Shown here one piece after another: positions 1 through 42,223 of a stretch of DNA of 64,000 nucleotides. Within the stretch, counting starts at the first letter, position 1, and the number at the start of each line of letters is the position of its first letter. Both the position numbers and the translations under genes were made by a program. The DNA is from Phoronis australis (taxonomy: Eukaryota > Animalia > Phoronida). The notes under the pieces were generated by a model. It saw nothing but the letters and a program-made list of their open reading frames with translations. It ran no database searches and was not told the origin of the DNA. The DNA lies in assembly GCA_002633005.1 (NCBI GenBank), contig NMRA01000721.1:117189-181188 (forward strand), in the 5' to 3' direction.

Positions 1-1089
1 ATTTTCCTCGCTGATAAATTATTTTATTGCTTCTAATAACTATTGTATTTACCGACATAATAAACAATATGTAGAAGTCCAGACTGGTTTGCATTGAAAT
101 TTATTCCTTTTAAATACATTAAAATAGCACTTTTAAATTTCAAATAGCTGAAGAACAGAGGAATTTCCATTTGGAAGCCTCGGTGCTGCAATGCAATAGA
201 TTTTGGTGATTTGTTTTTTTATCATGTAAAAATGAAGTGATATGTAGGCTGAAATAAGCATGGATTAAACACTATTCTGCCCTCCGCAGAGTAGGCGTGT
301 CCACCAATTGAGTGAAATCAATTGAAAAGTCTTTTGACCTAATGACTTTGTGGAAGTTAGCACGTACGCAGAGGGAGAATACCTGAGTAGTTACCAGTAT
401 TTTTCAAAATGATTGACATTTTTTAAATCAAAACAGCTTACAAAGTAAAGGAGAAACTACAGTCAAGATATTAGAAAGAGGGGCAAACACTGGAATACTA
501 AAATTTGAGAACCGGTAGAAATAATGTGGAATATACTAGAGCTCGACTCATTGGTTTACGGGTAAATCTACGCGGTGACCACTACGTTTCCAAGTGTATA
601 TTTTCACGGTCAAAAGCATTCATTGACAACACGGAACTACTACAGTGTAGTTTACACGTTTAGTGGTATTACACAGAACAAGCAAATCGTAAAACAACAA
701 TATGTAATTACAAACAAAAAGGTAGCGTAATGTGTGTGTCTGTTCGTGTACGTACGTGGGAGTGGGTGTGGGTGTTAGTGTGCATGTTTGTGTTATTTCA
801 TCTTGAAATTAGAAATGTCATTTTAGAGAAAGTCCCAAGGGATTTTTTATTTACCAGGTAAATCATAAAAACGATGGAAATGCCAACGCACAAATTTGCA
901 CCAACGGCTTCATTTTTGATCTGAAATTCCGCAACTTTGCGTTCATGCGGTATTAGATGCTGTATTCAAAATTGTGAAAATTTCATAAAAACGACTCCAT
1001 TTATTAAAACCTTAATATTATCACACAAATACTGTCAGCAATACTTTAGAATTATACACTAATCACCCGATAATTTTCATGAATGCTAC

Positions 1090-1173
1090 CTTAAGGAATT
1101 CCTTGATGTTTTCTGCATTTGATTTCTTGACCCCGCGTCCACGTCCACAAACGTCGTAAGCGGTTTCTCCAGC
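1090..1173 (-). CDS. Ankyrin gene exon 9, C-terminal capping repeat (AGETAYDVCGRGRGVKKSNAENIKEFLK)
   Basis: Acceptor ttttgttgcag; the G-x-T-A-x-D...I..FL pattern matches a terminal ankyrin repeat. The donor (gtagca) is weak, so the 3' boundary is uncertain. Confidence 0.75.
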
Positions 1174-4100
1174 CTGCAACAAAATGTTTGAATGGAAGAC
1201 GAATATTACGTAAAATTACAAGACCCGAGAATTGATCTTACATGTATGTAGACATGAACCTACTGCTACTTTCTGCTCTTTCTGAAATTATTGGCAGCAG
1301 AAATTGACTTTTAAATACTTCGTCAACCGCCGATGTAGTGCTAAAATGACCACTACATATTGAGTTATTAATGTCAATAGTTTATGCCAAATACCGATTC
1401 TTCCAAAACTGGCTGTTGCTTATTTTCATCAACACTTTTGTTGTGCTCATTAGAGACTTGAGAGGAAGCAGAATCGTTGCCATGTAAGCATACACGTGGT
1501 GATGTTAGGTTACACCAAGAAGTGCTGTAGTAGATACAGTGTACCCTGGGGATGCTGAGTTACACGAAAGACTGTTGTAGAACGCACAGTGTACACTGGT
1601 GATGCTGGGTTACACGAAGGAGGTTTGTAGAACATACAGTGTACACTGGTGAGACTGGGTTACACCAAGGAGTGCTGTAGAACATAGTGTACACTTGTAA
1701 TGCTGGGTTACACGAAGGAGAGCTGTAGAACAAACAGTGTACACGTGGTTATGCTCGGTTACACGAAGGAGTGGTGTAGAACATACAGGGTACACTGGTA
1801 TAACCAGTTAGTTGGAGATCAAACACGACGGCCTGACCGCCCCAGAGACTGGCTTTGAACGTGTAGACCCTGATGTGTATTTGATCACCAGCCAATCCAT
1901 GTTAGGTCAGGCCAACCCGCTCTTGAGTGCCGCCATCTAGTATAGGGTACCACGAGTTGGAGCACCGGTCACTGGGTTTTGCAATCCAGCAGGTGGTTTG
2001 GAAGATCGATCAATAGTTGATTTCCGCTCGTTATTTCAGACGACAGCGCCACTCGTGTTACGGCCCACGAGCAAAACTCAAAGTACATTTCACGTTAGTT
2101 ACTCCGTCATGATAATACGCTCACAAACACCTTTTCAAGCAACGTGTCATTTATGGGATGTTGATATTTTTGGTGTTCCACGGTAATTTAATGTCGTAAT
2201 CTGAGACTAGACTATTTTTGCTGAGTTACAAAACAATATGTGATATCACTGGTCCACATTTTGATCACGTGATTAGTGTATTGTTTGGATTGTTTTCTTT
2301 TACAGAGGTAATTTCTAATAACAGGGCCACCCACAGTCTAAAAGTCCATTTTTATTCCAACATGATATGTAGGCTTGGTTGATGTTACACGAAACAAAGG
2401 CACAGAGAGATTACTTGTTATGAAATAATCTGAAGAGTACATTGTAATCATTCCCATGTTGCTTCAAATCACACACAGTTGTCAAATGAAATGAAACTAC
2501 AACACTTTCCATTTTTCTACACGTTTAGTTGCAAGGTTTTTGTTGAAGTCTGCATTTTTCGGCAAGGACCTCTTCGGCAATCCATCTAGGTATGCGCTCA
2601 AATTTGTCTAGCAGCTTGTAAGTAAAAGTTGTAGAAAATCGAGGTTCACAAAGCTGGGTTTGGGGCCCCGAAATTGTTTGAAATTTAGGTGAAAAGGGAT
2701 TTTTTGAGATCAACCTCAGTGTGGAGCCAACATTCAACACCTGCGAGTGCGATGGCAGTCTCACACTATGTTAGTGCCGTTTCTCCGCTTCGCACTTTAC
2801 GATTGCCGTTCATACATGTGAGTATTTAGGCCAAAACACCTGTACACGCGGAATGATTCGCTTGTCCAAAGGACATATAATACTGTTCAAATGCCTTGCA
2901 CGTAGACACATGCGTTTTAAATGCACTTAAACGGAATGTTTTTATTTTATTTTATTTTTTCATCAAGTGTCAGTACTTTTATTTGTCTGAATGTACTGTA
3001 CGTCGACGTCTGTAATTTTGCATCGCATAAGCAAATCCATTCAAGGTGCATGGCCCTTCATACGTGCACAGGCAGAAAGCGGAACGGTAAAGATGAATGG
3101 CTGCATTCATGGTAGTTGTGCAGGTACAGTGTATTATCGATGAGTAATAATTTTAAACAGTGAGAGTATTTCATGAGCGCAGCCCGGGTGTCAGCAGCAA
3201 AGCTCGGCTAATTTCAACTTTTTGTCAAGTTGCAGAAGCTTTTGATTTAACGACAAGCTGAAACACGTGCAGCTACATTGGGAAGGTGGAATTTTCAGCA
3301 ATACAGTCAATCTGAAGAAATTTGAGTATGTTAACATATAACCACGCCCCCTTAAAATCCACTGAAATGTCTGTTGACATAGTCTGTACATCTGCAGTTA
3401 GAGATTGGACCCCGTGGGCCAGAGTGCAAGACACGAGGTAAGAATTGTTTAAATTTTCTTTAAAAAAAATGATTAAAGAACTTCAAAAATCTCGATGATC
3501 AACTTCAAAATCCTCTGTTTCCATTGATTTAAAGTACCAAGCGAACCAGAGGTTTCAGCGAATATTTCTAAGCATCTCATTACCTTTCTTGCATACTTCA
3601 CGTTTTATTCAAATTTTCAACGTAAATAAATATTTGTGTTCGAATTGAAATAAAAACTGGACGCCAAATACTGCCAAACAGGATTTTGTAAGGCTGTGGC
3701 CCCTTTTGGACATAACACGTTTGAGACGAAATGTGGGAAGACCAACATGCCGTCAGCGTTTTGACTGCAACATAACTCGACGTAGCGTTTGTCAGTGTCC
3801 AAGTCACCTGCGCATGAAGTACGAGAGACCTGATTTGTTAGATAGTGCAAATCGGTGACTCTGATTACGAGGTGGAAAAGATTTGAGTGCCGTTACAGCC
3901 TAGCTCCAGTGCACTATCATCTGCACCGCAGATGGGGACTAGCAATTACCAAATTTGGAGAAATGCGCGATTAGTTTAAGTCCAAGCACCATTTCGCAAT
4001 GTTTCATGCAAGTTGACAAAACGCTTGCTTGTCTGGCACAGGGGGTTAGTAGGTCCGGCGCGTTTTGTTGATTTGCGCTATATGCGGATTACGTAAGGAT

Positions 4101-7100
4101 TATAATGACGTGTATGCAAGTTGAAAAGGTTTCAGATTTGCAAATGAGTAATTGAAAATAGTTATACACGAATCGAAGGTTTGCAAATGAGTCTCCAATT
4201 TGTAACTAATTGGAAATAGTCATTGGTGAATCGTAGAATGTCGTCGATATTTTCAGATGGGTAAACATAAGTCAAATCCATGTGCAACGAATCATTCCCG
4301 TGTTGCTTCAATTCACACACAGTTATCAAATTAAATGAACCTACAACTCTTTCCATTTTTCTACACGTTTAGTTGCAAGGATTTCGTTGAAGTCTACATT
4401 TTTTATTAAGGACCACTTCGGCAATTCATCTAGGTATGCGTTTGTCTAGCTGTTTGTAAGTAAAATTTGTAGGATATCGAAGTTCCGAAAGCTGGATTTG
4501 GGTCCCCTTAATTGTTTAAAATTTAGGTGCGAAGCGCTTTTCTGAGATCAACCTCAGTGTGGAGTCAACATTCAACACCCGCAATGGCAATCTTACGCCC
4601 TGTTAGCGAAGTTTCTCCGCTTCGCACTTTATACATGTACCTAACAATTGCCGTTCGTGTATGTGCGTGTATTTTGGCCAAAACACCAGTACACGCCGAA
4701 TGGGGCTGTTGTCCAAATGAAATAATTTTGTTCAAATGCTTTGCACGTACAGTGTAGACGCACTTGTAGTTCCAGGTGCCTTTCATAAACGGGAAGTTTT
4801 TATTTTATTTTTTCATCAAGTGTCAGTACTTTTCATTTGACTAAATGTACGTCAATGTTTGCCATTTTGCATCTCATAAACACAATGAAGGCGCATGGCC
4901 CCAATACGCGCACACGCAGCAAGCGGAACGATAAAGATGAATGGCTGCATTCATGGTACTTGGGCAGGTACAGTGTCCTATTAATGAGCAAAAGTGAGAG
5001 TGTGGTTCGTACTTATATCAACGACAATCAGGGGTTGACAGGGGTATTTTCTTGAGTGCAGACCGGGCGTCAGCGGCAAAGCTCGGCTAAGTTTAACTTT
5101 TTGTCAAGTTTCAGAAGTTTTTAATTTAACGACGAGCTGAAACACGTGCAGCTACATTGGGAAGATGCGATTTTCAGCAATACAGTCAAATCTTGAGACA
5201 TTTGTGTATGTTAACATATAATCACGCCACCTTAAAATCCACTGAAATGTCTGTTGACATAGTCGGTACATGTTTTCCGTGGGGGCCAGTCGTGGACATT
5301 TATCGGTAAAAGGGGCAATAGCTTATTTGAAGAGAATATCAGAATCAAAGGATAAAGCAACTATAGTTGAATTTTCAATTTTGAGGCCAAGAACCGACGA
5401 CTTTTTATTTTGTATTATTGAAAACAGGGACAACACCACACTTTTCAACTGACTGATAATTCACCAGACTGCAAGCTGCTTCTTGCAGTACAGTGTCGCC
5501 ACCCTTTGAGAAGTTTAAAAAGCCTCTTCAACAAGTTTGAATTGCTCTTAAGAGTCGTTTTAATAAAGAGTGGTGTAGCATTTATCAAACTAAAAAGAAC
5601 ATCAGGGGAAAATCTTACTCCAGTATTTTTATAAAGAATCTTGTCTTATGCTTCATTCATACAGTAAATTAAGTTGTATTTCTTTGTATATGCGCATACT
5701 TTTGCGTACTTTTGTAAATTTTAATTCTACTCAATTCACTGTATCAAAATTATCCACTGCCAGACAATTTCAGTGGCGGGGTATCCCTGCAAGATTAAGA
5801 ATAACGGGATCTCAAAATAGACCTACTGTAGATCAGCCCGAGAGGTAACTGCATGACACTGTCTTCAAATTAATCAGGGTAGACCAATGAATCACGAATG
5901 AACACTGCCAGACAAACTGAGTGGCGGAGTTAACTCAGTATTTTGATTTGCAATTTACACATCTCTCATAAATTACGGTCACAGACAACTAGGAGAATCA
6001 GTCAAGATAAAGGGCACCAATCTCTATCAACATTTCCGATGATGGATGTATTTGTTGTCATAACACTCCCAAGTAATGCCTCTGATCAAGACTGTTTCAC
6101 CAGATGTATATCATATTTAAAAGTAAACCCAACTTCACCGACACATGTAGAGACTCGCACACAAAACTATATTTAGTTTAAACAACGAGGCACAAATAAC
6201 AGCAGGCATTTGGTAACATAAAGGTTACTATTTTAGAGAGTTTCGGTCAATTTTAAGGTTTTTAATGAATCAGACAAATTAGCCTGATGCCGCTTGTGCG
6301 AAGAAACATTAAAAACAGTGCATAGCACAAAATTAACAGTCCGAATGAAACCGACCTGAACCAACATATTTCGTGGCACCGTGTAAAACGAAACATGAAC
6401 ATTGAAATGATGACATACATACTTACAGCCTTAGAAGTTTTTGCAACTACATGATACAACTAATAAAACTAAACCTGATACTTTACTAACGGGAAGATAA
6501 CACCACGTCGGAAAGTTATAGCAAGGTTAAATGACATGTTCACTATTCAGGTAAAGTTATAGCAAAGTTAGATGACATGTTCACTATTCAGGTAAAGTTA
6601 TAGCAAAGTTAGATGACATGTTCACTATTCAGGTAAAGTTATAGCAAAGTTAGATGACATGTTCACTAATCAGGTAAAGTTNNNNNNNNNNNNNNNNNNN
6701 NNNNNNNNNNNNNNNNNNNNNNNNNNNNNNNNNNNNNNNNNNNNNNNNNNNNNNNNNNNNNNNNNNNNNNNNNNNNNNNNNNNNNNNNNNNNNNNNNNNN
6801 NNNNNNNNNNNNNNNNNNNNNNNNNNNNNNNNNNNNNNNNNNNNNNNNNNNNNNNNNNNNNNNNNNNNNNNNNNNNNNNNNNNNNNNNNNNNNNNNNNNN
6901 NNNNNNNNNNNNNNNNNNNNNNNNNNNNNNNNNNNNNNNNNNNNNNNNNNNNNNNNNNNNNNNNNNNNNNNNNNNNNNNNNNNNNNNNNNNNNNNNNNNN
7001 NNNNNNNNNNNNNNNNNNNNNNNNNNNNNNNNNNNNNNNNNNNNNNNNNNNNNNNNNNNNNNNNNNNNNNNNNNNNNNNNNNNNNNNNNNNNNNNNNNNN

Positions 7101-10100
7101 NNNNNNNNNNNNNNNNNNNNNNNNNNNNNNNNNNNNNNNNNNNNNNNNNNNNNNNNNNNNNNNNNNNNNNNNNTTAGTCACGTACATGTACAACTCCCGG
7201 AAACCAAGCCCAGCATTTAGTTTCAAAATAAAGGACATATTCAATACATCAGTTAAAAACTCCATTGCTATTTAGCTTATTGGTCCACTTCACAGAGTAT
7301 ATCTAATGTCTGCAACTCGTACGGATTGTCAATGTTTCCGTAAACATACATGTAGAAGTAATTGTTTGTTTATAAACTAGTCTGAAGTGGTCATATTTGA
7401 GCTTGTGCAATTTGTTATGTAATGATTTAATTATTATTAGGTGACTGAGTAAGCCCATTGAGGCTGGGGGGTGTGGTGAATAATCTGTCTTTGATATTGT
7501 ATTTACTGGTACCCTTATGTCACTATAATAAATAAATACACATGTACCGTAATCCCCGGAATACAAGGCCATGACCTCATTGTACTGTATGGCCATTCAC
7601 TCGAACTTAAGGTCACGGCTGTATAGGATGGGCCATTACTATTTTAAAGTGCTCTGTAAAACTTCCTTACTTTGCTTATAAGGCCATAAGAAACGTAGCA
7701 CAAAGACGTGTAACAGAATGCGCGTGACAATAGTATTATTAATATTAAAATAATGATGATTAAGTTAAGGAAAACAAGATACGTGTGAACACATCGCACA
7801 ACACCATACAGCACAGCTACTCCGCACCCAGACAGTGTTCAGTGTTCACCACTTTTGGAATTCGCTGCTGCAGTTTGCTTGCCAGTTTATTGTTCTTTAG
7901 AGAAGCATTATTTCATAATCTTAACCATTACATAAAGTTTTTGTCCTGATTGGTAAGCCAAAATGAACGCCATTGCCTTACATAGTACGGGTCACTTGCA
8001 TTTTAGTGTTCTAAAAATGCATTATATGTTTAGTTCCGGACGGATGTAATGTACTTCGTTTGTTCAAAGAAAATGCTTAAATATTCCACAAGCACTAGCA
8101 ATGGATCATCCGCCTTAAATTTAGTGATTTTTTCATGGTTGGTACATTTTTAGTAGTTTTCATTTAACAAAGAATTTCAAAATTGAATAAAGGTGAATGT
8201 TTGCCAAATAGTTTTTCAAATTTAACAAAACAAAAAGGAAAGGAGCCATGTTCCTACAGCTGAACACGGTTGTGGAATTGCGTGACGCAGAAACTTCAAA
8301 TTGTATAAAGAAATGACAAATAATTAAGCAAAACCAAAACGATCGAGTTATTATTCATTTGAATCAAGTCCCCCGGGAGTAGCGGAGAGTTTACTCTAGC
8401 CTAACTGAGATAAGAGACACTTCCAGTCAGAACTGAAAAGAGATAGATATCAGAGGAAAATCAAATACATTAATCAGGTACGTTAAAAATTAAACCATTT
8501 CGACTGATTTTGATTTTATCGAGCACCAGTTTGACAATAACTTTGTATTAGTCAAGCTTTCAACGACAAATGCCACACCAACGGAATAGTTCTTGTCGCC
8601 GACCATCTTCTTTTCACCGCTGTGATCTTCCGCTACTTGAAACCGATATGCGTTTTCACATTTTACAAGATCCAATAATCAAGCCGTGTTTTTATTTTAA
8701 TTTTAATTCAAGGACTAGCTCAATACACAATTTGAGAACAACATGACTGTACAATACACCCTGATAATCCATTTCAATTAGCATTAAGTAGGCAACTTCT
8801 TTAAATTTCACGTCACAGCGTCTCTTATTCTTTCCTCATTTTTCAGGCCCAAGCACATCTTCAGTTATGCGTTTTTATAAAAAGTCGCTCAAACATCCCA
8901 CTAGCAATCGAACAACGGAGTTCTTGCATCGTGATTGGTATATCTTCAGAATTTTGCATTTAAAGCAACACGTCAACGTTTACCAATTTGTACTTGAAAT
9001 GTCCATTTTACTCACGAAACCTTTTACTCCTGTTCACGACGGCCGACTCCAGTGAAATTGGCAGACCTTGTAGATTTGAAAGTCTTTGTTTTAAAATCAG
9101 TATGGACAAGATTGCACGATGTTCTGCAGGCGTTCTGCAACAGATTTGCGTGCGAACTGAGGGAGTTTCTAACCAAATATATACTCGACACATTACGAAT
9201 CAGAATCATTTTGCCTAGGCTGAATTTTATTGGACATACACAATGAGTGGAATGCAGTTGCAGACAATTTCGTGTTTGACTTCATAAAACGTCAATACTG
9301 TATGCACAAATCGGAAGCGTTCGGTGGCGGAGAATAAGAAAGACGTACAATTCCTTTACCGGGGGTCAAATTGAGCGGTAACATCAAACTTCAGTTTTAC
9401 TTCAGATTGGTACAGAATGTGCAACTTGGGAATCCAGACTCTGTGATTTATTAAAGAGTTATATAGCGGTTTCATCAAAGGACACCTATGGTCGGTATTT
9501 GGCACCTGAAGAGAGCGCACCCATCACAATGTTCCTTGTTGCTTAGTTACTGAAAAATCAGTTCTTGATTAAATCTAGGATTGTTAGTTCAAAGACGAAT
9601 GTAAGTTACGTCTTTTGTGTAGTCTATACCTGTATGACTTTTCAAAAACTTCCACACTAAATTTACATAATATAATGTTTCAATAATATGACTTTGGCCG
9701 GGTGAGGAAAGCGAAGACCTTGTTGAAAAGCGTAATCATAAAAATGAACTAGCGGTAACTTCTTAATAAATTATGAAAACAGCGATAATTTGCATTACTG
9801 TAAACAAGCGACACTGCCACCTATTTTACGATTGTTATGTTGCTAAAGAGTCTGCACTGTGAAAAATAAAAATATAACTTAGTTCCTGACAAATAGTCAA
9901 TGTTACGTAGATCACCTCCTTTCATAGTTGTCAGTGTTAGAGAAAGAAAAGCGACAACTTGATAACAAGCAGAAAATTTGGGTCTGCTAAAGGAACGAGT
10001 GAAATGATTATAGCAACAGAAGAAACTAACCTACAGCGTTTTTGTCGACCGAAGATTACGAGTGTCGTACCGCCCAAGCGCCAGAAATTTTTGAATTTAG

Positions 10101-13100: not shown

Positions 13101-16100
13101 GCTCAAATCTTCCACACGTTCTAGCAATCGACCATCTTTATAAAATTAGCGTTGTTTGTTTCGTGATTGGCACATTTTTAGAATCTTTCCAAAAAATATA
13201 CACGACAAGTTCACCAAGTAATACCGCAAAAGTCCATTTTCGCACACGAAATTGTTTCACTTAATTCATGTCGGCTGTCTAATTCAATTCTTCCACAAAA
13301 TGTAGATTTGCAAACGTTCACTTTATGGACAACATTGGCTGCGTTCTGAGAGTAATTTGCGTGAAAGTTGATTTTTTCAGATGCCAATATTTAGAGTTTC
13401 CAACCAAATAAATATTCGATAGGTAAGGACTCACAACCCTTTTGCGCACAGCGTGTTGGACATACACGGCGTGTGGAATTAACTTCTTAAACCGTCCATA
13501 CTGTATGCATTGACTGGAAGAATTCGGACTTTGCAGTCCCGGAGAGAAAAGAAAGACGTGCCATTTCTCTCCCGTACGCCACAATGATTGTAAAGGATGT
13601 CCAACTTCGAATCCAGAAACTGCATCATGCTTTATTGAAGCGTTATATGACGGTTTCATCAAAGGACACGCGTGGCCATCAGCGGGCAAACTAAGTTAGG
13701 TGCCGTAAAAATCCGTTATTGAGTAAATATTCGAGGAATAATAAATGGACGTCAAAATCCATGTCAAATGTCAATTACGTCTATTATATGAGCTATACTT
13801 TGATATTTCCGAATTTTAACGTTTTGTTTCAATAAAATGAATTTGAACGCACGAGGAAAGTACAGGCACTATTGGCATGCGTATTAATCTGTGAAATGAA
13901 TTTCTTCATCAACTGTTAAAAACGTCGACACTTAGGATTCCTGTAGACAAGAGACACTAAGGAGTCTGCGCTGTGAAAACTAACAAAATAACAATATTCA
14001 TGACACATAGTCAATGTTATTTAGTTCAGCTACTGAATAGTTGTCAGTATTAGAGAAGGAAAATTGAAAACTTGATATAAAGCGGTAAAACTGGGTCTGC
14101 CAGAAAACGGGTGAGATAATCGTAGCAACAGAAGAAACGACCCGTTTAATCGAACTAGTCGAACGAACATTACGAGTACTGTAATGACCACAACAGCTCG
14201 AAACTTTTGTGTTTAGCCGACTGGAAATATACAGTGTATGAGTGCCATTTTCTTTAGCAGAACTGAAAGTGAGGGCTATAGCCTGGAATGTGCCGGATTT
14301 ATCATGAGTCAGTACACCTGAACATTTTCACGGTGTGCACTGCTGGAACAATCAAAAAAATACGACAGTTTGCCACGATCAGTATAACTGGCAATTGTAC
14401 TGTACTCTATCGGAAAAAAAACAAAATGACCAAAATGATTCACAAACGTATTCACTTTGGTCAACTAAAATCGCTGAATCAAGTGCAACTGAGCAAACGA
14501 AATAATTTGTTATTTCCTTGCGAGTTTGCAAAATTCTAGGAAAGCAAAGGTTCCACACGTTGGTTTTGTTTCCCGTTTTATTGATACAAAAATAACCGCT
14601 TTTGCTCTACTGAAGGCATGTTTTGTTAACTTCGGTAATAAATATATCATCTTATAAATACCATGTTTACCAGTAAAGTCAACTTCAACGACACATGTAC
14701 ACCATCGAGACTCACATACCGCCATCTTTTGTTTAAACAACGAGGCACAAATACTGGCATCAATCTGAACTTTTGAAACATAAAAATTACCATCTAAGTG
14801 ATTTATTTGTCAATTTCAATTTTTAGCGAAGCAGGCACCCATTCGTAATTAATCTATTTTTCTGCAAGATATCCCGGCATAAATTTGAATTCTTTTAGCT
14901 TGAAGTTGGCAAACTTAAATAATTGTGTTGATATTATAAGGGTACAAAACGTGTCACTTATAACAAACAGTCAGTATTCATCGCTTTGTTACTGCATGTG
15001 GCGATTATGAAGGGATTCCCAGAGCAAAATACACTGACATCACTGGCTTGCGCACAGAGCAGCAATAGCAGTTTGAATGAAAATGGCTTTCACCAACACG
15101 TTTCATGGCATATAAATAAATCAATGACGCTTCGATTAAATAACTGAAACTAAATATGTACAGAAGTGGTTTTAAAGCAAGATGTAGGTCTTTTTGATGG
15201 AATAGTTTGTTGATAAATGAACAAATCCTCAAACTCAGAGTAGCGTGTGAGCACTACCCACAAAACTGTAAAATCAGTTCCGAACATCAGGTGTATTCAT
15301 TCTCCAATGTGGTGGACCTTGGATAAGTTCCTACATCATTTTGAAGTTACTGTTGTACATTTTAAAAGCAGTACATTAGATTTTTGGACTGGTTAATGTA
15401 TGTTTGACACATGAAACTTTTGATAACGTGGCCATCAACACAAATCACGTCCATATCTATTCAAGTTGTTTCAAAAAGAAATCACGTACAACTCAAGCTC
15501 CGCATGGAAATGATGAAATACATCCTTATATCTTTAAAACATTCCGCAGCTAAACAATAAAACTTGCTTACTTAGCAAAAAGACGAGAGATCAACGAGAT
15601 GAAGCACGATGCCATATTTTTGAAACAAGTGAAGCAGACGACAGGTAAAAAGCACAGTACTGTTTCCGACAACAAAATTCACGCAAAAATCGTAAACAAA
15701 CCAGCTTCAGTGTATACACAATTTAAAGCACCTGCGCATGTATACACAGACTTTGGATTTACATGTATTGTGGATCACAGCTCGTTTTCTAAGTTCAGAG
15801 GGCTCGGCTTGGCACCGTGATAAAAGGACTTGTGCTTTCGACGGACTGCCCGGGGCTTTGCCTCAGTCACGCCCTAGATTTCAACATCATAGAATAGTAA
15901 ATCCGACCATGGCAGGAACATACACGGTTGTGTGGTGAGGTTGAAATACATGTACAGTTAAGCCATGGGGTTAAAACACATGGATAAATTGATTGCTAAA
16001 TTATCGTTATATTAAACTAGGCAAGACTAAAACCTTCCAAGATTTCCTTCCTAAACGCGCATCTGATTCCTTGCAGTGAACCGATTAAAAACCTGCTTGT

Positions 16101-19100
16101 TTTATAATTAAAGTGAGAAAATCTGAACCTGTGGCTGTTGTCTGCCGGTGAAAGCGCGTTTGGTCTGTTTTTATTTTGTGCTGAATTATTACATTGTACG
16201 TAGGAGAGAGATCATTTTGACAAGGTATTTATTACGAATAAATAGTTTTACGAACTCATATTACATTTAAAACACATTTATTGCAGTCTCAACTATTCAA
16301 AGAGTGCAACACTCTTGCAATACCTCGTTGACGGTATTGATGTCACATCCGCTTTCCCTGCACAGTAGTTTCACTACCTCTGTATGTCCACCTGCTGATG
16401 CCACGTGCAGCGGTGTGTCACCCGACTACAGTAAGTGAACAAAAATAGATAATGTTGATCAGCATTATACAGTAGTGATGTGGGTGGGTGAAAAAGTCGT
16501 CGAGTTTTATACTTTGCCAGTTGAAACTTCAACATCAGTTGCAATACTGATGAAGGGTGTGACTCAACAGGACGAGACTAAAACCTGACATTTAAACTCA
16601 GAAAAAACTTGCGCGGGATTTTTTAAAATTCCTCTGATCTGATGTAGTGGTGATTGAAAAGAGTGTTTCAAATATAACAACTTGATCTCATACATTACAA
16701 CAGATCGACATTCATTTAATGAGTGCTGTGGAAATGCAAGTAAAGAACCAAGTCACTGTGCAAGTCTAGGTGAACTAAAAACTGTTTATAATTAGTTAAA
16801 GTCGCGTGCACGTCACGTCACGTGCGGTGGAATGCAACAAAAATGTCAATCTTTAAAATGAAATCATAAATCACGATTAATTAAATCATTGAATGATTCA
16901 GCCAAGTCACATGTTGTGTGTTCATCATCCTTATGTAAACAACTAGTTCAATTAAACAACCTGTGTGTCATTACTTACCTTATTACGTACATCTACACTG
17001 GCCTTGTTGGCCAACATCACCTTCACTGTGGCTGTATGACCATACCGTGCTGCCGTGTGCAGCGGTGTCCGGCCCCACTATGTAATAAATAATGGAGATG
17101 TGTGAATGGACGATCAAAGTTTAGAGCTAATTAACATACACGGGGGAAATTGAACTTGTAAGGTGACATAAATGAAACATTACTGACCCCTCTAAGACGC
17201 CACAATACTTGACATGTAATGAATTCAAGAATCAAGTTTTACAGATTTTAAAACGTTACAGAACATGTTACAACTCTACGCAGCTTTGGTTCTTCACCAA
17301 GAAAAGCAGACGACATTGAACTTATTGATTTTGGACAATAAATTGTGAAAAATATCAACAAAATGTGTTCCTAAACATTTTAAACTATCCTTATGTTAAC
17401 AACTAGTTCAACTAAACAACCAGTGTGTCATTACTTACCTTATCACGTACATCTACACTGGCCTTGTTGGCCAACATCACCTCCACTGTGTCTGTATGAC
17501 CCTCCCCTGCTGCCCAGTGCAGCGGTGTCCCGCCCCTCTGTGTAATATATAATGGAGATGTGTGAATGGACGATCAACGTTTAGAGCTAATTAACATACA
17601 CGGGGGAAATTGAACTTGTAAGGTGACATAAATGCAACATTAATGACCCCTATAAGACGCTACAATACTTGTAATGATTTCAAGAATCAACATGAGTGCT
17701 TCAGATTTTAAAACGTTGCTGTAACAACAGAACATGCTTTGGCCGTTCTACGCAACTTTGGCAATTCACGAATGTAAAGCAGACGACATTCAATTTGTTG
17801 TGCTTTTGGGACATTAAATTGAGAAAAAGATCAAGGAAATGTGTCCCTAAACATTTTAAACTATCCTTATATAAACTATCCTTATATTAAACATTACTGA
17901 CCCCTCTAAGACGCTACAATACTTGTAATGATTTTAAGAATCAAGTGTTACAGATTTTAAAACGATACAGAACATGTTACAACTCTACGCAGCTTTGGTT
18001 CTTCACCAAAAAAAGCAGACAACATTGAACTTGTCATTGTTTTTGGACAATAAATTGTGAAAAATATCAACAAAATATGTTCCTAAACAGTTTTAATCAT
18101 CGTGTTTGTTAACAACGAGTTCAACTAAACAACATGTGTGTCATTACTTACCTCAGTACGTACATCTACACTGGCCTTGTTGGCCAACAACTTCTTCACT
18201 ATGTCTGTATGACCACCCTCTGCTGCCCAGTGCAGCGGTGTCTCGCTCGACTATGTAATATATAATGGAGATGTGTGAATGGACGATCAACGTTGAGAGC
18301 TAATTAACATACACGGGGGAAATTGAACTTGTAAGGTGACATAAATGCAACATTACTGACCCCTCTAAGACGCTACAATACTTGTAATGAATTCAAGAAT
18401 CAAGTTTTACAGATTTTAAAACGTTACAGAACATGTTACAACTCTACGCAGCTTTGGTTCTTCACCAAGAAAAGCAGACGACATTGAACTTTTTGTTTTT
18501 GGACAATAAATTGTGAAAAATATCAACAAAATGTGTTCCTAAACAGTTTTAATCATCGTGTGTGTAAACAACTAGTTCAACTAAACAACCTGCGTGTCAT
18601 TACTTACCTTATCACGTACATCTACACTGGCCTTGTTGGCCAACATCACCTTCACTGTGTCTGTATGACCACGCCGTGCTGCCCTGTACAGCGGTGTCAT
18701 GCCCATCTATGTAATATATAATGGAGATGTGTGAATGGACGATCAACGTTTAGAGCTAATTAACATACACGGGGAAAAGTGAACTTGTAATGTGACATGA
18801 ATGAAACATTACTGACCCCTCTAAGACGCTACAATACTTGTAATGATTTCAAGAACCAAGTGTTACAGATTTTAAAACGTTGCTGTATCAACATAACATG
18901 TTGTAGAATGTAGACGTCGATTGCCAGAAATTACAGAGTTCCTGCATAACTTGACAGCGATCCCGCCATGTTGTATTTCTTCACCGATTTTCTGGCTTCG
19001 TGTTTAATATAAAGTTGTAATGTTGAATGGACGATTGTCATTAAGAATAGAAAAGAGTCAACTTTAAGACCACAAATATATTGTTGACACAATTCAAACC

Positions 19101-22100
19101 TCGATGTTTCTTAAGATGCATGTACACAGTACAGATTGAAAAATACTTGTTGAAATCATGAGATATGAAAAGTGTTTTTACACACAAAATATTTATTTAA
19201 ACTTCAGATAGTCTACAGCTTTTGTAACAAAGATAACATTGTCTTAATTCTAATGTCGTCTCAAGTAGTTTCTATTACCTTGTCTTGCACGTCTACATTG
19301 GCCCCACCCTGCACCAGCACCCTCACCACCTCCGACCTGCCCCTCTCTGCTGCTTTGTGAAGTGCTGTGCGGCCCTGCAGAAACAATGAACAAGTTATAG
19401 CAAAATTTACAATCACTAATTTCACTGTGAATCCTAATTACTTGTCATGCAAAGGTTGAAATACAATTGTATACAGAATTACCAAATTTATTCTCTGTTA
19501 ACCGGGTAATATATTACTCGTGGTTGGAATAGATCATCATTTTAAAGAACAGTATATCTACCCGAATACCTGCTGCGTGTATCAATTCAAAAACACGGTG
19601 AAACTAACTTAGAAATCCAGTTTCACTCCTCCCCCAGGTCCAAAATAGTTTCTAACAAATTTAGGTCACTAACAAACAGGAATAGAATTAAGACAGAACA
19701 CCAATACATGATTAAAATGATATTGGATTAGGTTATTATTAAAATACAACTGAAGTGTGAAGTAGTTTAAGGAAAATAACACAATTAAGCAATCCTTGGT
19801 ATATGATGTGTTACTGGTTAAGAACAAGTACACAGAGAACAATTCAACTTGTTAATGACAATGGTATTGAACAAATTGCTAAGTGAGAAAACGTCCTGGA
19901 ACAGGACAAACTCTTCTCTACAAATTAAACACATTTTACCAAAACCATTCCTCTTATCAAGATTGATGTTCAGCAAAGTCAATACATCACGTAATTCCCA
20001 TTTTGCCAAAAAATGCAAACGCATTGTTCTGCTGTTCTGAGTCTCCAGACGTCGAGGCAGTGACCTGGCCAAGAGAACTGCTGCTTTTAAAAGAGCGCTT
20101 TGCCGGCCAGTTTTCGCGTGTACACGCGATAAATTGATACATTAACCTGTTCTTGAATATATTTAAAGGGGCATTTCCTTATCGCGAGGAATCAATTAAA
20201 GAGACTATGACCATGACAAATATCATGAAACTGGTTGTATCTTGAGTTTTTTGACACTCGTTTGACATTGTAAATATTGTAATTCGGCATGGACACCGTT
20301 TCCTATCTTGCATAAAAATACTGGCGCGATCGTTGATTTACCTTATTCAACATTTTATTTTTGATATTCCGTAAAGAATGAAAAGTCAAAAATATACGGT
20401 GTCCAAGACTTTCATATTCTGTATGGAACGATCACGACCTTTTTATGACAAGCAAACAAGGAATACAAAAAGGTCAACATCAACATCAGCTGCATTTTGA
20501 TGTTACGCCTCTACTTGCCGACGGTCACTTGGACCCGACCGTTACTTGGATAGAATATAGAAAACAGACGTAAAAATAACGTGCAAAAATGCAAAATTAT
20601 GTGTCATAGAGTCATATCCTCCATACCAAAAACAATGATAACATGTTGCACCGGTAAAACATTTGCCTTTTTGAAATGATCTAAATAAATCTTTTAAATT
20701 TCACTGTTTATTAAAATTACCCAAGAAGTACAATGCGTGGTGGTATATCAGTAAACTTATAAAAGAGGCATGGAACGCGAATGTTTGGCAAATATATCTT
20801 TTAAAGAAATTGTCATGAAAGTAGAACCTCGCAACGTCTAATACAGAGGAATTCATTTTCCTCTTGTTAATAAATTTACAGAAAAATCAAACATTTTACA
20901 ATTTTTGAAATACGTTTTAAGAAAAAAAACTCTGTAGTCAAAACGCATTTTCTAGTCTCACTCCAACATATGATAAATGGGCTTATGCGCTCATAGTCAG
21001 TTCTTAGAAGTCGCTTGATGTCAACGACCAAATTTTCCATATTGTAACCTTGTCCAAAACCCCATTTAGAACGACTGCATGTCAAAAAACTCAAATTGAA
21101 GAATTATACCATTATGGTGATTGGCCATGGTCTCTTTAATTGGTTTATCGTGATAAGAAAATGCCCCTTTAAATATATTCAAGTACAGGCAAATGTATCA
21201 CTTGATCGCGTGTACAAGTGAAAACTGTAGCCTATGTGAAATCGCTATTTTTAAAATCAACTCTTCGTCTACCAGTGCCACGTAGTTTCAAGACGGATAA
21301 GAGCAGAACCCTGACCCTAACCCCGATCCCTAACCCCGAACCCTAACTCTGACCATAACGACAACCACTACAAACATTAAACCCTGCGACTCGAAACTTT
21401 GATCTGTTTACCACTTTTTAAACGCGTCTTGCAGATTTGAGTATCAATTTCAGAGAGTTAAAGGAGAGGTGGGTGCTTGCCAAAGCTATTGGCGCCTTAT
21501 TGAAGATGTTCACGAGTTACAGGTGGCGATTTGTAGAGGACTTGGCGCTTGTTCCAATAAATGTCGCGTCTGATTTGCAATAGTTGGCAACTCAAAACCA
21601 GTCTGCTGAAACACCAGTCATGGCTACCGTTCGGCTATGAGTGAGCCCAGTTTTGTAATCCAAGCGTTTGATGTTATTTGTGATCAAAAGAACCAATGAG
21701 ACTCATGTTCAAACAGGCTGTTGCATGATATTTCCAAATCATGATCCTCAGCATTTACGTCGACCGTGCGTTCAAACAACGGGACCTAGCAGTGTACAGT
21801 AGAAATGCGATGCTGTCTGGGATACTGTAATTGGATAATCTCAACATATTACATAAAAATAATACGTTTTCCCATCACATAGTTTGTTAAGTTAATCGTT
21901 AAAGAATTACTGGAAACGTCGATGTTTTGTGACCTGTGATCACGTGTTCTGTTGTGGTCCAGAACGTTTTTCGGCCCTTCTGAAAATTTGCAAAAGTATC
22001 CAAAAATACTGGTCAACAAAACGCGTCAAAGATGTATTCTGCACTATTTCATACTCACACGTGACATGTGTGTTTACCACCAAGACATCAATGAGACTGT

Positions 22101-25100
22101 TCTCTGTTAGTGTTCTTTTGAACTTCATTTCGCAACAATTAAAAGATGGAAGGAGAAACGCGAATTGCTAGATGTTTGCCAGGTATCTGCCAGAAATGTA
22201 CATATAAAAACTCACTAATTATATGTTGGAAACTCCAAGCGGCATATTGCAAGTTGATACTGGTGGCCAAATCCTCAGGTTGCGTCAGACTTTGAGCCTG
22301 TGCAGTTTTATTATTGCAACATTCTAACGTGCAGAGAATATTAGCTAACTGTGACGACGCAATTGTGGTTTTAAAATAGGGACGTTCTTGTCATGGTTGT
22401 GTGGCTGTCTTTTCAAATTTCATTGTCACTTGTTTGATGAAAGTGGGTCATGAAATTAATCACTACGAGTGATTATCACCCTGCTGTAGGTACATGTAAC
22501 TAGTGAACGCTCGGGTCTGGGAATCGTACTTGTAAAGTAAGAAGAAGCGATACGTTCCAATTCTTGACCTTTAACCCGATGCTCTGTTCTAATGGTTACT
22601 AATGTATTGTGAACTCAATATATATTTCTGAACACGATTAACACGATCAAAATGGCATTGCTTGATTTAGTTCAGAAGCCATTTAAAGATCAAATATGTA
22701 TCAGGTTTTGAACATTTCAGGGAAATGAAATTCAGTGTTGACGTGCAATTGAATGTTTAACTATTAACTTCCAAAATGTCTTTTATTAGAGGCTTGGAAC
22801 CCGATAAACAAACTAACTTGAAATATTGGAAGTAATTCTCTACAACATGAACAGAATTTAGCCTGCTCACCTGGTGTTCTTAGGGTTTGTTTGTAAATAT
22901 GTTTAACTTCTGTTCATGTCAGAGCATTTTCTTTTATTTCCAAATTTCAAAAATGCCATATGTCAACACACAAGGCAAAGCACGTCTCCTTATTTGGAAT
23001 GGCAGGACATCAATGTTGCAGAAATTTAAGATGATCGATATTCTACCCTAGGATGGTGTTTATAGATGGAAATGTTAAAAAATGAGGTCTCAAAGAATTT
23101 CACATGCAAAGGGAACATCACGATTTCTTTGATGACAAGCAAACACGGAGTACAAAAAATCTACGCCTTGAACATAAGCCGCACTTTGATGTTACGTCAC
23201 GATTTGCGGACGGCCACTTGGACCACACGGTTAGTAAATGGACAAAATAAATAAAACATACCTACAGGAAGAAAATAATGCGTAATACAACATGGCACCA
23301 ATACCGAAAAGTATAATAACATGTTGAACCTTAAAACAACTGCCTGTTTGAAAAATATCTACTTGTAAATTAATTTTTAAAATTTCATCGTTTATGAAAA
23401 ATCACCCGAGAAGTACAATGCGTCACATGAACATCTGTCCATATATTACTAGAAGACAATTGGAAATCGATAATTAAATATGCATTTGGACGTCAACACT
23501 GTACTGCGTCTCACTACAATTATCAAAACCTGATACACAGTTAAGCATTAAAGATTCCGCAAGATACAAATTAAGCCACAGTCATTGTGTTCGTTTTTGG
23601 TGTGCCTGCATCTCCATCCCGCAAAAATATAAAACAAGAGCGTGAAGAAATATTGAGTTCATTAATTAACCGCCATAATGAACATACAGCTGAGACAATA
23701 GTCAAAAATAAGCGCAGGTCAAAAGTTGGTTGTACGTCTGAGACCGCCTGCACACTTTTTTAGTGGTTGGTTTTCAGTAGAAGGTTAGAATTCCGGTTTA
23801 TCCTGGGTAAGTGCATGCAGTCGTGGTTGCATTTGCCCGAGACGAAATGTCACCCCCCTTATGATATCCTATATCTGCCACCGTATATCACTATATCTGC
23901 CATTCATTCTCGACACCTTACTATAGTACTACTGTACAGACCCAACTTTTCATGCGAGCTGAGATTTTGTCTACTCGTGTCAAGTCGCAATATGCGACTT
24001 GGAATTTTCAACATAACCGTACAGAGTTTTACATGTACACCTCTCGGCAAAAACATGGCAAATATGAAGCAATTCATGTGGGTCCGACCATTATTTTGTT
24101 GTTGCCAAATTAAGTTCAAAAGGACACTAACAGAGAACGGAACTATAAATGTCTAACATTTGTAAAAATACATGTATTGCAAAAACATGAAATAATGCGA
24201 AATGGATTTTTGACGCGTTTTGTTGAAACGTATTTTTGTATAATTTTGCAAATTTTCGGATGTGCCGAGGTATATTCCGGAGCACGAGATACAACGTCAC
24301 AAAACGGTGACGTTTCCAATAATTCTGAAACGATCAACTTAACAAACTTTGTCTTGGAAAAAAACATATTATTTTTATGCTAATTGTCCTGATTATAAAA
24401 TTATAATATCCCTAATCATGGGTGGTGCAGCACTGAAGAATGTGGGGGCTATAGCAGCCAGACCCCCTGAGGAGCACCGCCCGTAGTCCATGGGTGGCGA
24501 AGCACTGAAAACAGGGGGCTACTGCTACACCCCTCACCCCTATGATGCGAAGCCTATGCAGATAGTAGATCCCATTGCGGCACAACTTAGTTTTGTTGTT
24601 TGTGCGCACGGTCGAGTCCTCGCAGCTATCATGATTCGGAATGTAAAGTAACGACCTCTTTGAACTCGCCTCCTGTTTTTTTTTTCGCAAAAGACAGAAA
24701 GCAAGTGAATTACAACCCTAAGTCCACTTATAGGAAAACGACCTCTTTTTCAGCTGACAATTTTTCAGTTTGTACATGTACAGTAACTATTGCAACTTAT
24801 TTTTTAAACAAGCAGACAAAAAATTTTCAGCAATCATTTTATTCTTCCATTCGCACACCATGCCAATTTTTTACTCCCCAGATCATGAGTCGACTATGTC
24901 ACTGAAATATGGTGTTGCATCATTTCTTGCTTTGAAACGTTTTGTAACAAGCGCCCACTGGTCTACTAATCGCCACTCTTAAGTTTTGACAAAATTCAAT
25001 AAACCGCCAACTGCTCTGGCAAGCTCCCACCATTAATTTACCTCACTGGAATTGATTTTCAACACTTCAAGATGCGTTTAATATGCGGTAACCGGACCAA

Positions 25101-28100
25101 TGTTTCGAGTCGCAGTGTAGTAAGTGTGTAATACACTGTAGTCCACGGAGACATTCTGTTACAAGCGACTGCGTGGTTTGAATTTGTCATCTACGCACTC
25201 TATAGTGGGTCACACACTGCTTTAGAACAAATTCCTTTTCAAAAAGAACCCCTCTTTTATCAATATTTAAAAGCAAATTTCCAGATTCGGTTCATGTCTC
25301 CGAAGGATTAGTAACCCCTGCGACATGCATGTTGGGATCAGGTGTCGTTTCGAGGTTAACCTATATTCTGCAAAATTATATGGCACGTACAGTGTATTCG
25401 GTCCCAAGGAGCAAAGTCGAATTACCCGGTAATGGGAAGCCGCTCGGATTGGATATTATGTCGAAGCTCCAAGGGAATTCAATGGCAGTAGAGAAAAATA
25501 CAGTTGCACCAAACAAATTTGGAATTACTAGACGACGCGGGTAAAATCATGATCTCAACATTTTCTCGACGGCCTAAAACATAATTTGGCACATTTGGTT
25601 AATTTTTGCAACCTGTATTCTTAACGGCTTGATGTGTGTCGTGAAATGCAGATATAAAACGAGTTATTATTAGTTTTGCCTTTGCCATGACCAAAATGTT
25701 AAGCATTGTCTAAAAATATGATTGCTTGGATAAATAAGTTTCGTAAACATACTGAAGCAATGATAAACAAAAACAAACAATAAGCAATGCTTCTTTTCAT
25801 GTTATCCGCTGTATTATGCGCCTTACCACGGATAATTATTGTTTATTTTTGCATAATTTCTTAATATGTTGGTACAGCATTAGAACAAAAGTTTATTTTA
25901 AGAACAACAGTAACAATGGCTTTAACATAGTGCAGAGATTAAGATCATGGGTGCATGAAAACGGAAGAATGTGATCGGTTAAAGTGTGACACATGATCCA
26001 TCATCATTCTGAATTTGTTGTCACTTTCAGAGTAAATTGTTTCCTATCTAGCCAGCTAGCTGTATGGAGACTATAGTCAAAATACAGTAAGGTGCCACTG
26101 TGTATTGAGCTCCGACAGACCTCGGAATTGCAAACAGCCCGATAAGTTACATGTATGCCCGTCACCTTGCCGTGAAGCTTGTATCAACATTAGCTAAAAA
26201 CCGGAGGGTGTGCATGCAAAATCTGGAACTCAATTGCCATTCACCTTGCCCGTCAGGGCCGTTCAAATGAAAAATACAAGACGTCAATTTCTTGTGTAAT
26301 TCACTGCATTGGTTACAAAGAAATGTATGTCGTCGTTTTGAAAGTAGTACATTCGTGACACGCGCTACTTACAGGATTTTTTCGACATCACCCATTGGAT
26401 GAAGACAACATCGCAGCAAAATTTGTTCTAAAATTCGGTTTACAGATATCAAATTCCAAAAACATACAATGAAGTGAAAACAATTCTGATCATTTGTTGT
26501 GACGTTTAACCAACATCGAGGGAGAAAGTGTGATTGAAGAATCTGGGAAAAAGAAACTGGCTAATAGGTGACGCAATATTTCATTGCGCCGAAAGTCGAG
26601 GCAAAAGTTCACACCACAATTTTAGCAGCAGAGTAATTGTAGAAAAGCAATCTTTGAAATTCCTGTAGATAATTTAGGTTACTCAAGGAAGATTTTTTTC
26701 GGTCAGTTTTTACCCACAACGGCGCAAAGTAGTATATTTAATTTAGTAAACAGCTTCGTACAAAGGCCGAGCCCAATATTTAGCGGTTCGCGTCTACTCC
26801 AAGGGGTAACAGTTATATTGATTTACGTTTCATTACAAACTTCTCCTTCTGAGAGTTTCTTTCTCACAAAAGCGGTCTTCGAATGTAGAATCTGGACTAT
26901 GGTATGTAGTGTTTGTCATATCATATTAGTTCACGTTCTTTCCGAAATTATCTATACGATTGTTTGTTTTTAAAGCAGGGGGATAATTGTGATCAGATAT
27001 AAATTCGAATGACTTATTGTACATGTACGCGTACGAGCTATTCACAGTTATAACACATAATTCAACCGATATTACAATATATGCATGCCTAAGAACGTGC
27101 TCCGAGTCAGTGACCATGTAATCAGTATGCCGTAATTTTTGTTTATCTAAATTTGGAAGACCTGCTTTGTACTTGGCCTCGGTTTATTAATGTAGGGTAA
27201 TGACAACACACGACTCTGAAAATTTTGAAAACTTAACTATTTCTTTACGCAGATACGTTTTGTCCCCAAGCGTACATTTGATGTACGACGTGGGCACCGA
27301 CTCTCTGAATGCATCAACCAAGCATATCAATTTTTGAAAATGCCCTCAAAAGTGGTCTTTTATAAAACACCGTGTTGGCCGTATTCGTCAGTGTAGAAAA
27401 GCGAAATAAACCGATTTGTACACACTGCTCAAAGCACTTGTGGACATGCATGTACGGAAACGTCAACGTCGCTGTCTTACAACGGTGTATGTGCTTGGCA
27501 TTTCTGATGAAGCGTTCTCATGCTGGATTTTTTTGAAGATTGAGCGCTGTTTCAAAAAAATGTAGGTCTTCTTACACCAGAGCACAGAAGAATTATTCTG
27601 CACCTTGGTTTATTTTCTACCATTTTTTTTCGACATCGCAATCCGGCGCTTTACCAAAGATTCACGCACGTATGCCGCGTAGAGACAAATACCTCTTCAC
27701 CACGTATTCACATCTTCGCGTTCAAAATCGTTTTATTTTACGTAATTTGTCAATATTTTATTGACAGAAAATATTTATTTTTGGAACAGCGTGAACGAAC
27801 AACTGATACATGCAACCAGCGCAGATTTTAACGTCACCGATGCACTAAAAACGGAGTGCGCAAACCTAGAATTGGTTGTAGCCCCAACAGGTGTTTTGTC
27901 ATGAATTCTCATGAAGTTAATTAAGTGCAAATTTCATCATTTCCTATGACGTACAACTATCCCAACAAAACAGTTTATGTTATATAACAATTTCGGACAT
28001 CTTGTGTTGTTGTTTACTATGCCACTGACCAGTGCCCACTCATAGTGACACCCTATATGGCAAACAGCTGTCCAGACTCCATTCATGTTTATGGTTTGGT

Positions 28101-31100
28101 TGAAATCACCGAAACTCTCAATATTGCTGTTGTTTTGCACTCAATATTGTTGTTTTGCACGCACAACCCACACACATTTCTATTCACTACATATATTGTA
28201 GCTAGAGTTAATAAACTTTGTGTGTCAGTAGAAACTCAACGACTGTGTTACTTTTTATGTTGCTCTCCATCGACTTGCTGTTGCTACCTTGTTAGCCAAC
28301 TACTGTATCTACCGTTCAACAAAGAACCGGGTAACCACAACTATACTACCACGACCATCCCCACACTAGTGGAATCCGTGTCTCCACATTGCCGATATTT
28401 CCATCAGGTTTTTACGTGTTTCATGTCACTGACTAAGTTCATGGAAATCGAGTAACCACGTGATTTCGAAGTAAGAGTCATCAAAGTCCGTGGGTTTAAT
28501 GCATACAGGACCGTGAAGTTCACGTCTGTACTGCAAGGGTTAAAGGCTAATGCCACCCGATTTAATTAGTCTTTTTGCCGTCTTAATCGGTCTATTTTCA
28601 CATCGCCTCGAATACGGTCGACCTTATCTTGCCAAGAGGTGTCGCGTTAACCTGTGAAGAAGGTGAGAAACGACGCTAGCGACGTCTGTGGTTCATATGC
28701 AGAATGAATGCCGCTATGTTGCGGTGTATCGTTCCAGCTTGTCCGAACTAAGCAGCCGCGAGGAAAGCGAGTATATCGGGTTTTTTTTACTTCCTCGAGA
28801 GTTCGAAATGCTTAGGAAGTGGCTCATGGTAGTGAAGAATGAAATGTACGCTGTAAATAGCAAGTATGAGGCCGTGAAACATCTCCGTGTCTGTGGCCTG
28901 CAGACGACGTCGACAGTGCCTCACGAATGCCCGGCTTACCAAATAACTCCATACGTTCCGTTGTCTGAGCTTGTTCACGGCGCCTCTCTAGTATTTCTTC
29001 ATCACTGTATTCCTGTTCGAATTGATAGCCTGTAAAACTTAACGATCCACCTGCGAAGTCGGGACTGATGAGCCGCTCTAGCTCGCCCGAAGTCGGGATT
29101 GCGAGTTGCCATGTTTGGCGTTTATTACTGAGCGTTCTGTTTCAAAATGAATTATTCTCACCCTAACCAATACTTATATAAAACTGAAACAAAGTCTGTC
29201 TCATTAGATGCAATTTGTAATGCCTTTGGAGTGTCTGTGAGTGCACAAAATGATTTGAAAAGCCAGCAATGAATAAATCACTGCGTTACCGGCTTTAGGA
29301 GCAATAAAACTAATTGACGGGACACCGAGGCCGTGTGAGCTCATGCTAATTTAGTGTTAGGGGAATCTTTATTTACATTTACAATACTCAAATAATGATT
29401 ATCAATGTACAACTTCTGCCCTGACGGTGCTGTGGCCAAAGCGGAACGAATTCGCGGCCCCCGACGAGTAACTTAAGAAGATTTGCAGTTTCGTGGCTAA
29501 TTCACCGACATAATCACGTGCACATTACTTTGGCTCACTGGCCAGGATAAGCGTTTTGTGTTTAGAACTCAGAAAATCACAAGTCTAAACAACACAGATC
29601 TATGTTCTCCTGTCTGTATCTCACGGAAAATACTTCGAAATTTTCTCTGAACACACCCCAAACTCCTGCTACGGACCTTATGGGCCTGCCGAACTTTGTA
29701 GCCCGGGCTACGGTGTGTCCAAATACCAATAAATCCCGTAACAGTGAGATAAAACAAAAAGTTATTGTGAGAACTCGGTGTATTTTTAAGGGTTTTACAT
29801 CGAATTTTGATGATTTATTGGTGTTAAACGATGACTCCAAGCGATAACCTGACACCAGTAACCTGTGTTGTGAACTGCTGAACAGACTGCGTTTGAAACC
29901 GATTACGTCATTGGATAATTTCAACACCTCCGTCTGCCGTCAGGTGTCAGGTAACGCAACCGCACGTGTCGTTATGGAGTAGAACTACTCGATCTAAATT
30001 GATACAAATTATGTTGTTTTTTGGGTGGATGCTCCTTTAATACTATGAAAATAAAAACCCGGAGTGAGAGCTCTTCGGTGTAACAACTGATGGGTACGTG
30101 ATAGGAGACCCGTGGAGAATTTTTAAAAACGCAAAAAATTCAGTTCGACGTAACACAAACAAAAAAAAAATTGAGCGAAAATGTTAAAAATAGCTTTGTT
30201 TACAAAATGACTACAGCCTGTATTGACCGGGAAGCAGCCAATCTAATGCAGCTTGTTAACGCCAGGAGACAAATTAAAGATCAAATGTAAAGAAAACTTT
30301 CAGGTCTTTTTGTCGAAAACTTGTTGCACTGTCAATATTTCAATGATATTACCCCTTGCCTCCAACATTCGAATCAGCGGGTGTTACTCAACCGATTTGA
30401 ACTCATGTAACGGAGACAGTAAAACTAGATTAATTTATTTGACCCTGTGCTAAGACGAATATGCATCGTCACGCAAAGTGGTACCAGCATGACAATCTAT
30501 TACGCAACTGCTACTCTAACCTAAAAATAGCAGCCCACCAACTGGTCGGCTGATGGCCAGTCGGCTAAAGTTCATTTGAAGGGTCGGCTGGGGAAGCGCC
30601 TAAGTTATGAGTCGGCACTGCGGCCGGCTTGCCGGCAAATTTGCCGGTCGACGGGCGGTCGTCGACCAATTTCCGACCAGTCGGACAAAAATTCGTGATG
30701 TGTGCTGAAGGTCAAAGTTTTCCGTATCCCGTTACATGATAAATCTTATATAAAAATGTAATAATGGTCATCTTCAATCTACCCATACCATAGTCTTGAA
30801 TGACAACTTCGTTGCGTGAGCCAGACAAAACTGGTAACACTTTCTTAGCCGGAGAAAGGCGAAGAAGGGATATTGCGAAAAAATGCAAACCAATTTTCTT
30901 ATCATCAAAGCTTAAATCAATAACACCAAGTAGCAGAATTTTAGACCAATAAGGAATTGTTTTATCAGTATTACAAAACTACCATAATTTAACTTCACCA
31001 TGTTTTGCAAGTAGGATGTAAAGCTTATTTCTAGAAAAGAATCAAATTCTTACTTCCCCGCGTCAGGTCTTCATTTACATTGGACACAACCTGCTTGATA

Positions 31101-41836: not shown

Positions 41837-42223
41837 ACCTTTTGCCTCTGTATCCGTCTCTAACGTGCTACTTGACATGCAGGCTCTGCTGGTCGACTTA
41901 AGGAGTCCGCACAGAAAGTTTTGAACAGCGCACACTCTTTCTCTTCTGCGAAGTAATGGCTGTTCACTCTAAGCTTTCGCGCTCGTGGTACGCCTTCAAC
42001 AGATTGGCGATTTTATTATTGCCGTTCAGATTGATTCTGTAGTCCATTAGGTTCACTCTTTCTTCAACTTTGTAAGGCCCCTTCCACTGCAGAGTATGTC
42101 TGTTGTGGTCTGTGGGAAGTAATACCAAAACTCTTGCTCTGCCTCAATCTTCGGTAGCGCCACTGCTTCCGGGTTTCTGGTAGCGAAATCTACTACTGCG
42201 AGGATGTATTTGCTTCCCTTTTC

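Follow-up and report, generated by a model that had tools for sequence, protein, structure and literature searches.

A tandem array of ankyrin exon cassettes

The stretch of Phoronis australis DNA that we analyzed (64,000 nt, hereafter the window) carries on its minus strand a tandem array of four exon-plus-intron cassettes (positions 16918–18900, extents from repeat families and self-BLAST), spaced 456–460 nt apart except for one interval of 713 nt. Each cassette contains a single 99-nt, phase-0 exon bordered by AG and GTAAGT and encoding one ankyrin repeat: exon 1 (18608–18706, exon A by gene order in a preliminary description of the locus), exon 2 (18152–18250, its exon B), exon 3 (17439–17537), and exon 4 (16979–17077, its exon D). 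The borders of exon 1 coincide with the rise and fall of RNA depth. A minus-strand relic unit that lacks the exon (17632–17885) is 77% identical to 17890–18096 and represents an older partial duplication of the intron.

Two diverged phase-0 ankyrin exons of the same strand, whose introns are unrelated to those of the cassettes, lie upstream (19279–19374, 96 nt, backed by RNA depth) and downstream (16324–16425, 102 nt, backed by RNA joints). All six ankyrin exons, the four of the cassettes and the two diverged ones, pass the Pfam PF00023 cutoff, and a six-frame search of the window outside its 1,046 N bases returned these six only, with no spare or inverted repeat exon in the introns. Such phase-0 borders would allow repeats to be added, removed, or exchanged without loss of frame. 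RNA covers the intron at 18900–19278 well, most of all in run X7 (up to ~160), and shows many fixed differences there; a paralog likely retains this intron or uses it as an exon.

A splice-site scan of the minus strand added two candidate cap exons with a putative link to the array: a phase-0 half-repeat that may form the N-cap (35342–35431), with weak BLAST similarity to ankyrin N-caps, and a possible C-cap exon bearing a GETAYD motif (1090–1173, donor at 1090 or 1067). Neither gave a Pfam match. The array is part of an intron-rich minus-strand gene, which likely runs on beyond window position 1.

Elsewhere in the window, a DED-like minus-strand exon with good splice borders (62721–62891) scored below the Pfam cutoff for DED (E = 0.017; 15.8 bits, cutoff 35.9). 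No homologue of it was found among 54 candidates, nor any convincing exon bridging it and the N-cap exon; it could be the N-terminal effector of the array gene or belong to another gene. It is flanked by a segmental duplicate (60542–61273 and 63287–64000, 94% identical). A minisatellite at 57620–58198 (16 copies of a 36-nt unit) is partly open as a 12-residue repeat, and 20085–25130 holds nested long inverted repeats, 72–87% complementary, that resemble a decayed foldback or MITE element. From its motif, we take 42056–44362 (minus strand) to be a retrotransposon integrase-like fragment, and 28667–29032 (plus strand) has a weak THAP-like match (E = 0.06).

Replacement changes are concentrated in five codons

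The four cassette exons segregate at 22 sites, 21 of them at codon positions 1 or 2, and no change is silent: in all six pairs, a shared residue is always written with the same codon, as had been described. The earlier comparison of exons 4 and 2 was also reproduced, with 10 differences in the first 36 nt (16979–17077 vs 18152–18250) and 4 in the 123 nt of adjacent upstream intron (17078–17200 vs 18251–18373), this pair being the most extreme of the six. Over the six pairs, the counts are 7–10 for the first 36 nt and 4–8 for the upstream 123 nt. In a formal alignment, mean pairwise divergence is 13.3% for the exon, above the 5.3% of the upstream intron (170 columns), the 7.0% of the downstream intron (45 columns), and the 4.5% of the two whole introns (356 columns).

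The claim that the introns are more conserved than the exons holds for these averages (4.5–7% vs 13.3%) but not for the exon at large, as the excess falls mostly in five codons. Codons 1, 3, 8, 11, and 12 are 50% divergent, and the remaining 28 codons are 6.7% divergent, about the intron rate (p = 0.55). Segregating sites are more frequent at codon positions 1 and 2 (21/66) than in the intron (23/215; Fisher p = 1.4e-4), and third positions (1/33) do not differ from it significantly (p = 0.22). At the intron rate, 2.6 silent sites would be expected and none would be seen with a probability of ~0.08; the lack of silent changes is unremarkable by itself, and the real signal is the excess of replacements. 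Fifteen of the 26 minimal changes lie inside the five codons (permutation p = 0.02, the five having been picked after viewing the data), and by hand arithmetic these contact codons change at ~13 times the intron rate (14 changes at 10 sites vs 23 at 215). All these selection tests count changes among four copies rather than fit a codon model. Exon 2 has eight singleton replacement sites, some of them in the framework, where it is changed at codons 2, 17, 20, and 21. A few codons thus undergo fast replacement, the background around them is young and uniform, and the introns are not specially conserved.

The variable codons align with a predicted binding surface

In PDB alignments, the DARPins 6mol and 5leb show variation among their repeats at aligned positions 1, 3, 11, and 12, and in some repeats at 8. 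The randomized surface positions of DARPins form their paratope; six positions are involved, described without numbering in the passages concerned (PMC8683736, PMC9611651), and the mapping of codons to DARPin positions derives from the PDB alignments, not from these papers. By analogy, the five variable codons are predicted to form a ligand-binding face.

Similar positions vary in some database proteins. The ANK-Roc-COR protein of Branchiostoma belcheri (P0265) has 12 near-identical repeats that are most variable at 1, 3, 8, 11, 12, and 33, and an abalone (Haliotis) protein (P0070) varies at 1, 7, 8, 11, 12, and 16. Of the 11 database proteins examined, abalone P0004 and some further ones have part of their variation at other positions, and two lack a group of similar repeats. 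P0265, P0070, and the sponge protein P0182 carry arrays of near-identical ankyrin repeats with hypervariable positions on the putative binding face; judged by protein sequence, such predicted binding-face variation is not unique to the Phoronis array.

Reads indicate an expressed multi-copy family

Reads from one DNA run and, under the same species label, three RNA runs (~18–19% of each) were aligned to 16000–19600 and to a single cassette (18578–18770); run X1, possibly the source sample, was not counted as independent. RNA was stranded to the minus strand and peaked on the exons, and most reads were only 85–95% alike. The summed contig depth on the exons was 1,000–4,000, against 20–80 for many single contigs, depth not being equal to copy number. 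These data indicate many family copies, that is, a spliced, expressed multi-copy family. In the intron just before the acceptor, a stretch of ~35 nt (18711–18745) had a summed contig depth of 20,000–34,000, against 2,000–8,000 in the exon; it may be common to many more cassettes, and short overlapping contigs inflate the sum.

In the single cassette, 39 variants reached a share of at least 15% in at least one run; the 99-nt exon holds 37 of them, and 94 nt of intron hold the other 2. The table took family reads at ≥84% likeness, hence favors similar copies and clips diverged introns, and pools alleles with paralogs. Taken singly, 36 of the 37 exon variants change the residue, and the sole silent one follows the frequency of a replacement in the same codon; 22 of the 37 sit in codons 1, 3, 8, 11, and 12.

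RNA joints connect cassette-type exons to one another and show additional residues at codons 33, 1, and 3; others connect cassette-type to downstream-type exons (22 and 13 reads). The joints listed mix alleles and paralogs and do not prove four-exon splicing of the window allele. RNA also carries tandem downstream-type exons absent from the window, which may stem from another allele or from a paralog. In the loose ends of the RNA, a related exon subtype has changes at codons 26, 28, and 30 that are silent by manual reading, and so silent change is permitted and accumulates with age.

Origin of the pattern and probable function

We consider it likely that the array consists of recent cassette copies in a multi-copy ankyrin family, subject to conversion or unequal crossing-over and to diversifying selection, and that its product is probably a recognition receptor acting inside the cell. 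What holds the cassettes alike is likely a combination of gene conversion and unequal crossing-over, and duplication and conversion of whole cassettes would reset the neutral sites. The introns and third positions would show one short age (~5%) because the units are copied whole, and only the selected contact codons would escape it, as diversifying selection likely drives, keeps, or fixes differing residues there. Homogenization of the cassette combined with selection on the contact codons had been put forward in the preliminary description, and the divergence tests, the DARPin alignment, and the read variants all support it. With four copies and four informative intron sites, recent tandem duplication and ongoing conversion are not fully separable.

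The database proteins with comparable ankyrin arrays are signaling or defense-type proteins, and the product, by analogy, likely serves within the cell as a receptor for innate immune or self/non-self recognition. No signaling domain was found in the window, either in 50 segments compared with Pfam or by tblastn of 267 proteins, so the immune role rests on analogy. NACHT, NB-ARC, and nSTAND NTPase domains were not found within the window, past position 1 of which the gene likely continues, and ROCO proteins gave no tblastn match outside the ankyrin exons, further downstream exons likely lying beyond the window. A signaling domain would lie outside the window or be unlinked.

Among the alternatives, a single burst of tandem duplication followed by subfunctionalization of each repeat position is unlikely but the most credible. 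Conversion would then not have gone on, there would have been no arms race, and each repeat would have been fitted a single time to a constant partner. Such a burst fits four copies at ~5% intron divergence, and exchange is suggested by only four informative intron sites (incompatible 2:2 groupings were found at 4 intron and 5 exon sites). What speaks against it is that the same five codons each have 3–6 common alternative letters across the family reads of three RNA samples and one DNA sample, and that, of the 37 differences that set the other three copies apart from exon 1, 30 recur among the common read variants, as do 13 of the 17 that exon 2 shows.

A targeted somatic or germline diversifier (a mutator, templated conversion, or programmed cassette exchange) that writes the variation into the contact codons is improbable. 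The variable codons do mostly have a constant third letter (NNG or NNT), with the variation at positions 1 and 2, as happens with retroelement-type diversifiers, and the deeply covered stretch before the acceptor is what a shared signal might look like; its conservation is, however, also expected from splicing signals and homogenization. A localized mutator, which the preliminary description had offered as an alternative, finds no support: between the variable codons lie silent A and CpG sites that never vary, and the silent third positions beside these codons show no variation at ≥15% in the reads. In addition, transversions are as frequent as in the introns (13:17 vs 8:15), and the DNA contigs already carry the variants. 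CpG hypermutation was ruled out, the CpG of Pro5 (CCG) being invariant, and a diversity-generating retroelement was rejected on the invariant silent adenines, with no reverse transcriptase match among the 50 segments compared with Pfam, a search that was not exhaustive.

A related speculation, for which we see a slim chance, is that ankyrin cassettes are exchanged among dozens of loci within a lifetime, with the pre-acceptor intron stretch as a handle, which would make the system a counterpart of lamprey VLRs. If this were true, an invertebrate would be making a natural DARPin-like receptor repertoire via exon-cassette exchange.

It is very doubtful that the cassettes are Dscam-like alternative exons, skipped or mutually exclusive, with introns conserved for splice regulation. 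The many cassette-to-cassette RNA joints rule out a mutually exclusive array even though all exons share phase 0, and the direct joints from cassette-type to downstream-type exons are explained equally well by reads of paralogs. Intron RNA structure was ruled out for the one intron folded, which did no better than its shuffles (z = 0.67), and intron and third-position divergence do not differ significantly. Optional exon skipping is possible on top of cassette copying and selection.

Finally, an assembly artefact or a pseudogene is hardly credible: no read or contig among those listed spans the whole array, and several letters of the window occur in none of the aligned reads or contigs, but frames and splice sites are intact in the copies, errors would hit third positions too, independent reads repeat most of the exon differences, and a collapse of the introns, raised earlier as a possible cause of their uniformity, would not yield four copies with private intron alleles.

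Comparison with known systems

Snake PLA2 and HLA class I may be cases of introns more conserved than exons, which a literature search did not confirm.

The ankyrin arrays of fungal NLRs, such as Podospora Pa_3_8560, combine near-identical ANK repeats with five positively selected positions on the concave, ligand-binding face, and concerted evolution has been proposed for them (Dyrka 2014, PMC4986451). The Phoronis array resembles them in this conserved-plus-hypervariable regime. Against the HiC criterion of ≥85% internal conservation over ≥100 aa, its repeats cover 132 aa with a mean column identity of 83% (64–79% to the first copy); diversifying selection on the binding face, a separate mark of HiC-repeat receptors, is indicated in Phoronis by the counting tests and the DARPin alignment. 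In contrast to the NACHT-type fungal proteins, no NACHT was found in the Phoronis window, and each Phoronis repeat is an exon of its own with its intron copied along, whereas the word "intron" is absent from the main text of PMC4986451. Highly conserved repeat arrays of the fungal kind are rare in metazoans (0.8%; PMC4986451, PMC13449251).

The ROCO-LRR and NB-ARC-TPR receptors of brown algae form a multigene family with one repeat per exon, exon shuffling, and diversifying selection on the ligand face (Zambounis 2012, PMC3341825; Teng 2024, PMC11378527). As in these Ectocarpus-type receptors, each Phoronis repeat occupies one in-phase exon, but the algal repeats are LRR or TPR in phase 2 and the Phoronis ones ANK in phase 0, and the inverted intronic spare exons of the algae were not found in the Phoronis window. 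The zinc-finger array of PRDM9 undergoes concerted evolution with a dN/dS of 9.9–13.9 at its contact codons (Oliver 2009, PMC2779102), a regime and rate similar to the ~13-fold excess in Phoronis; PRDM9, however, has DNA-binding zinc fingers in one gene, and Phoronis a family of exon cassettes.

Ankyrin arrays are likewise found in invertebrate signaling proteins (P0265, Haliotis P0070, the caspase-nSTAND3-ANK protein P0004, and the Ptychodera ANK-Roc-COR protein P0031), and P0265 and P0070, compared at the protein level, have near-identical repeats varying at positions that overlap those of Phoronis. No orthologue was found among 151 database proteins (best repeat identity 20/33); a frame search with a single exon gave one match at 33%, and six-frame alignment and profile searches returned generic ankyrin proteins with no orthologue. 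DARPin libraries share with the array a fixed 33-residue framework, variable surface positions, and N- and C-caps (those of Phoronis being candidates), but are synthetic and engineered.

The evolutionary regime has precedents in fungal NLRs, brown algal receptors, and PRDM9, and the combination of ankyrin repeats, an exon-plus-intron cassette, and an animal was not found described: in the literature searched, which took in few subscription papers, no publication dealt with animal ankyrin arrays that are hypervariable and built of exon cassettes. A family of the Phoronis type would be a sign that invertebrates possess a class of variable intracellular receptors not yet described. With one exon per repeat, its introns provide a built-in neutral clock, and neutral and selected sites share a 460-nt unit, which makes for a clean system in which to set conversion against selection.
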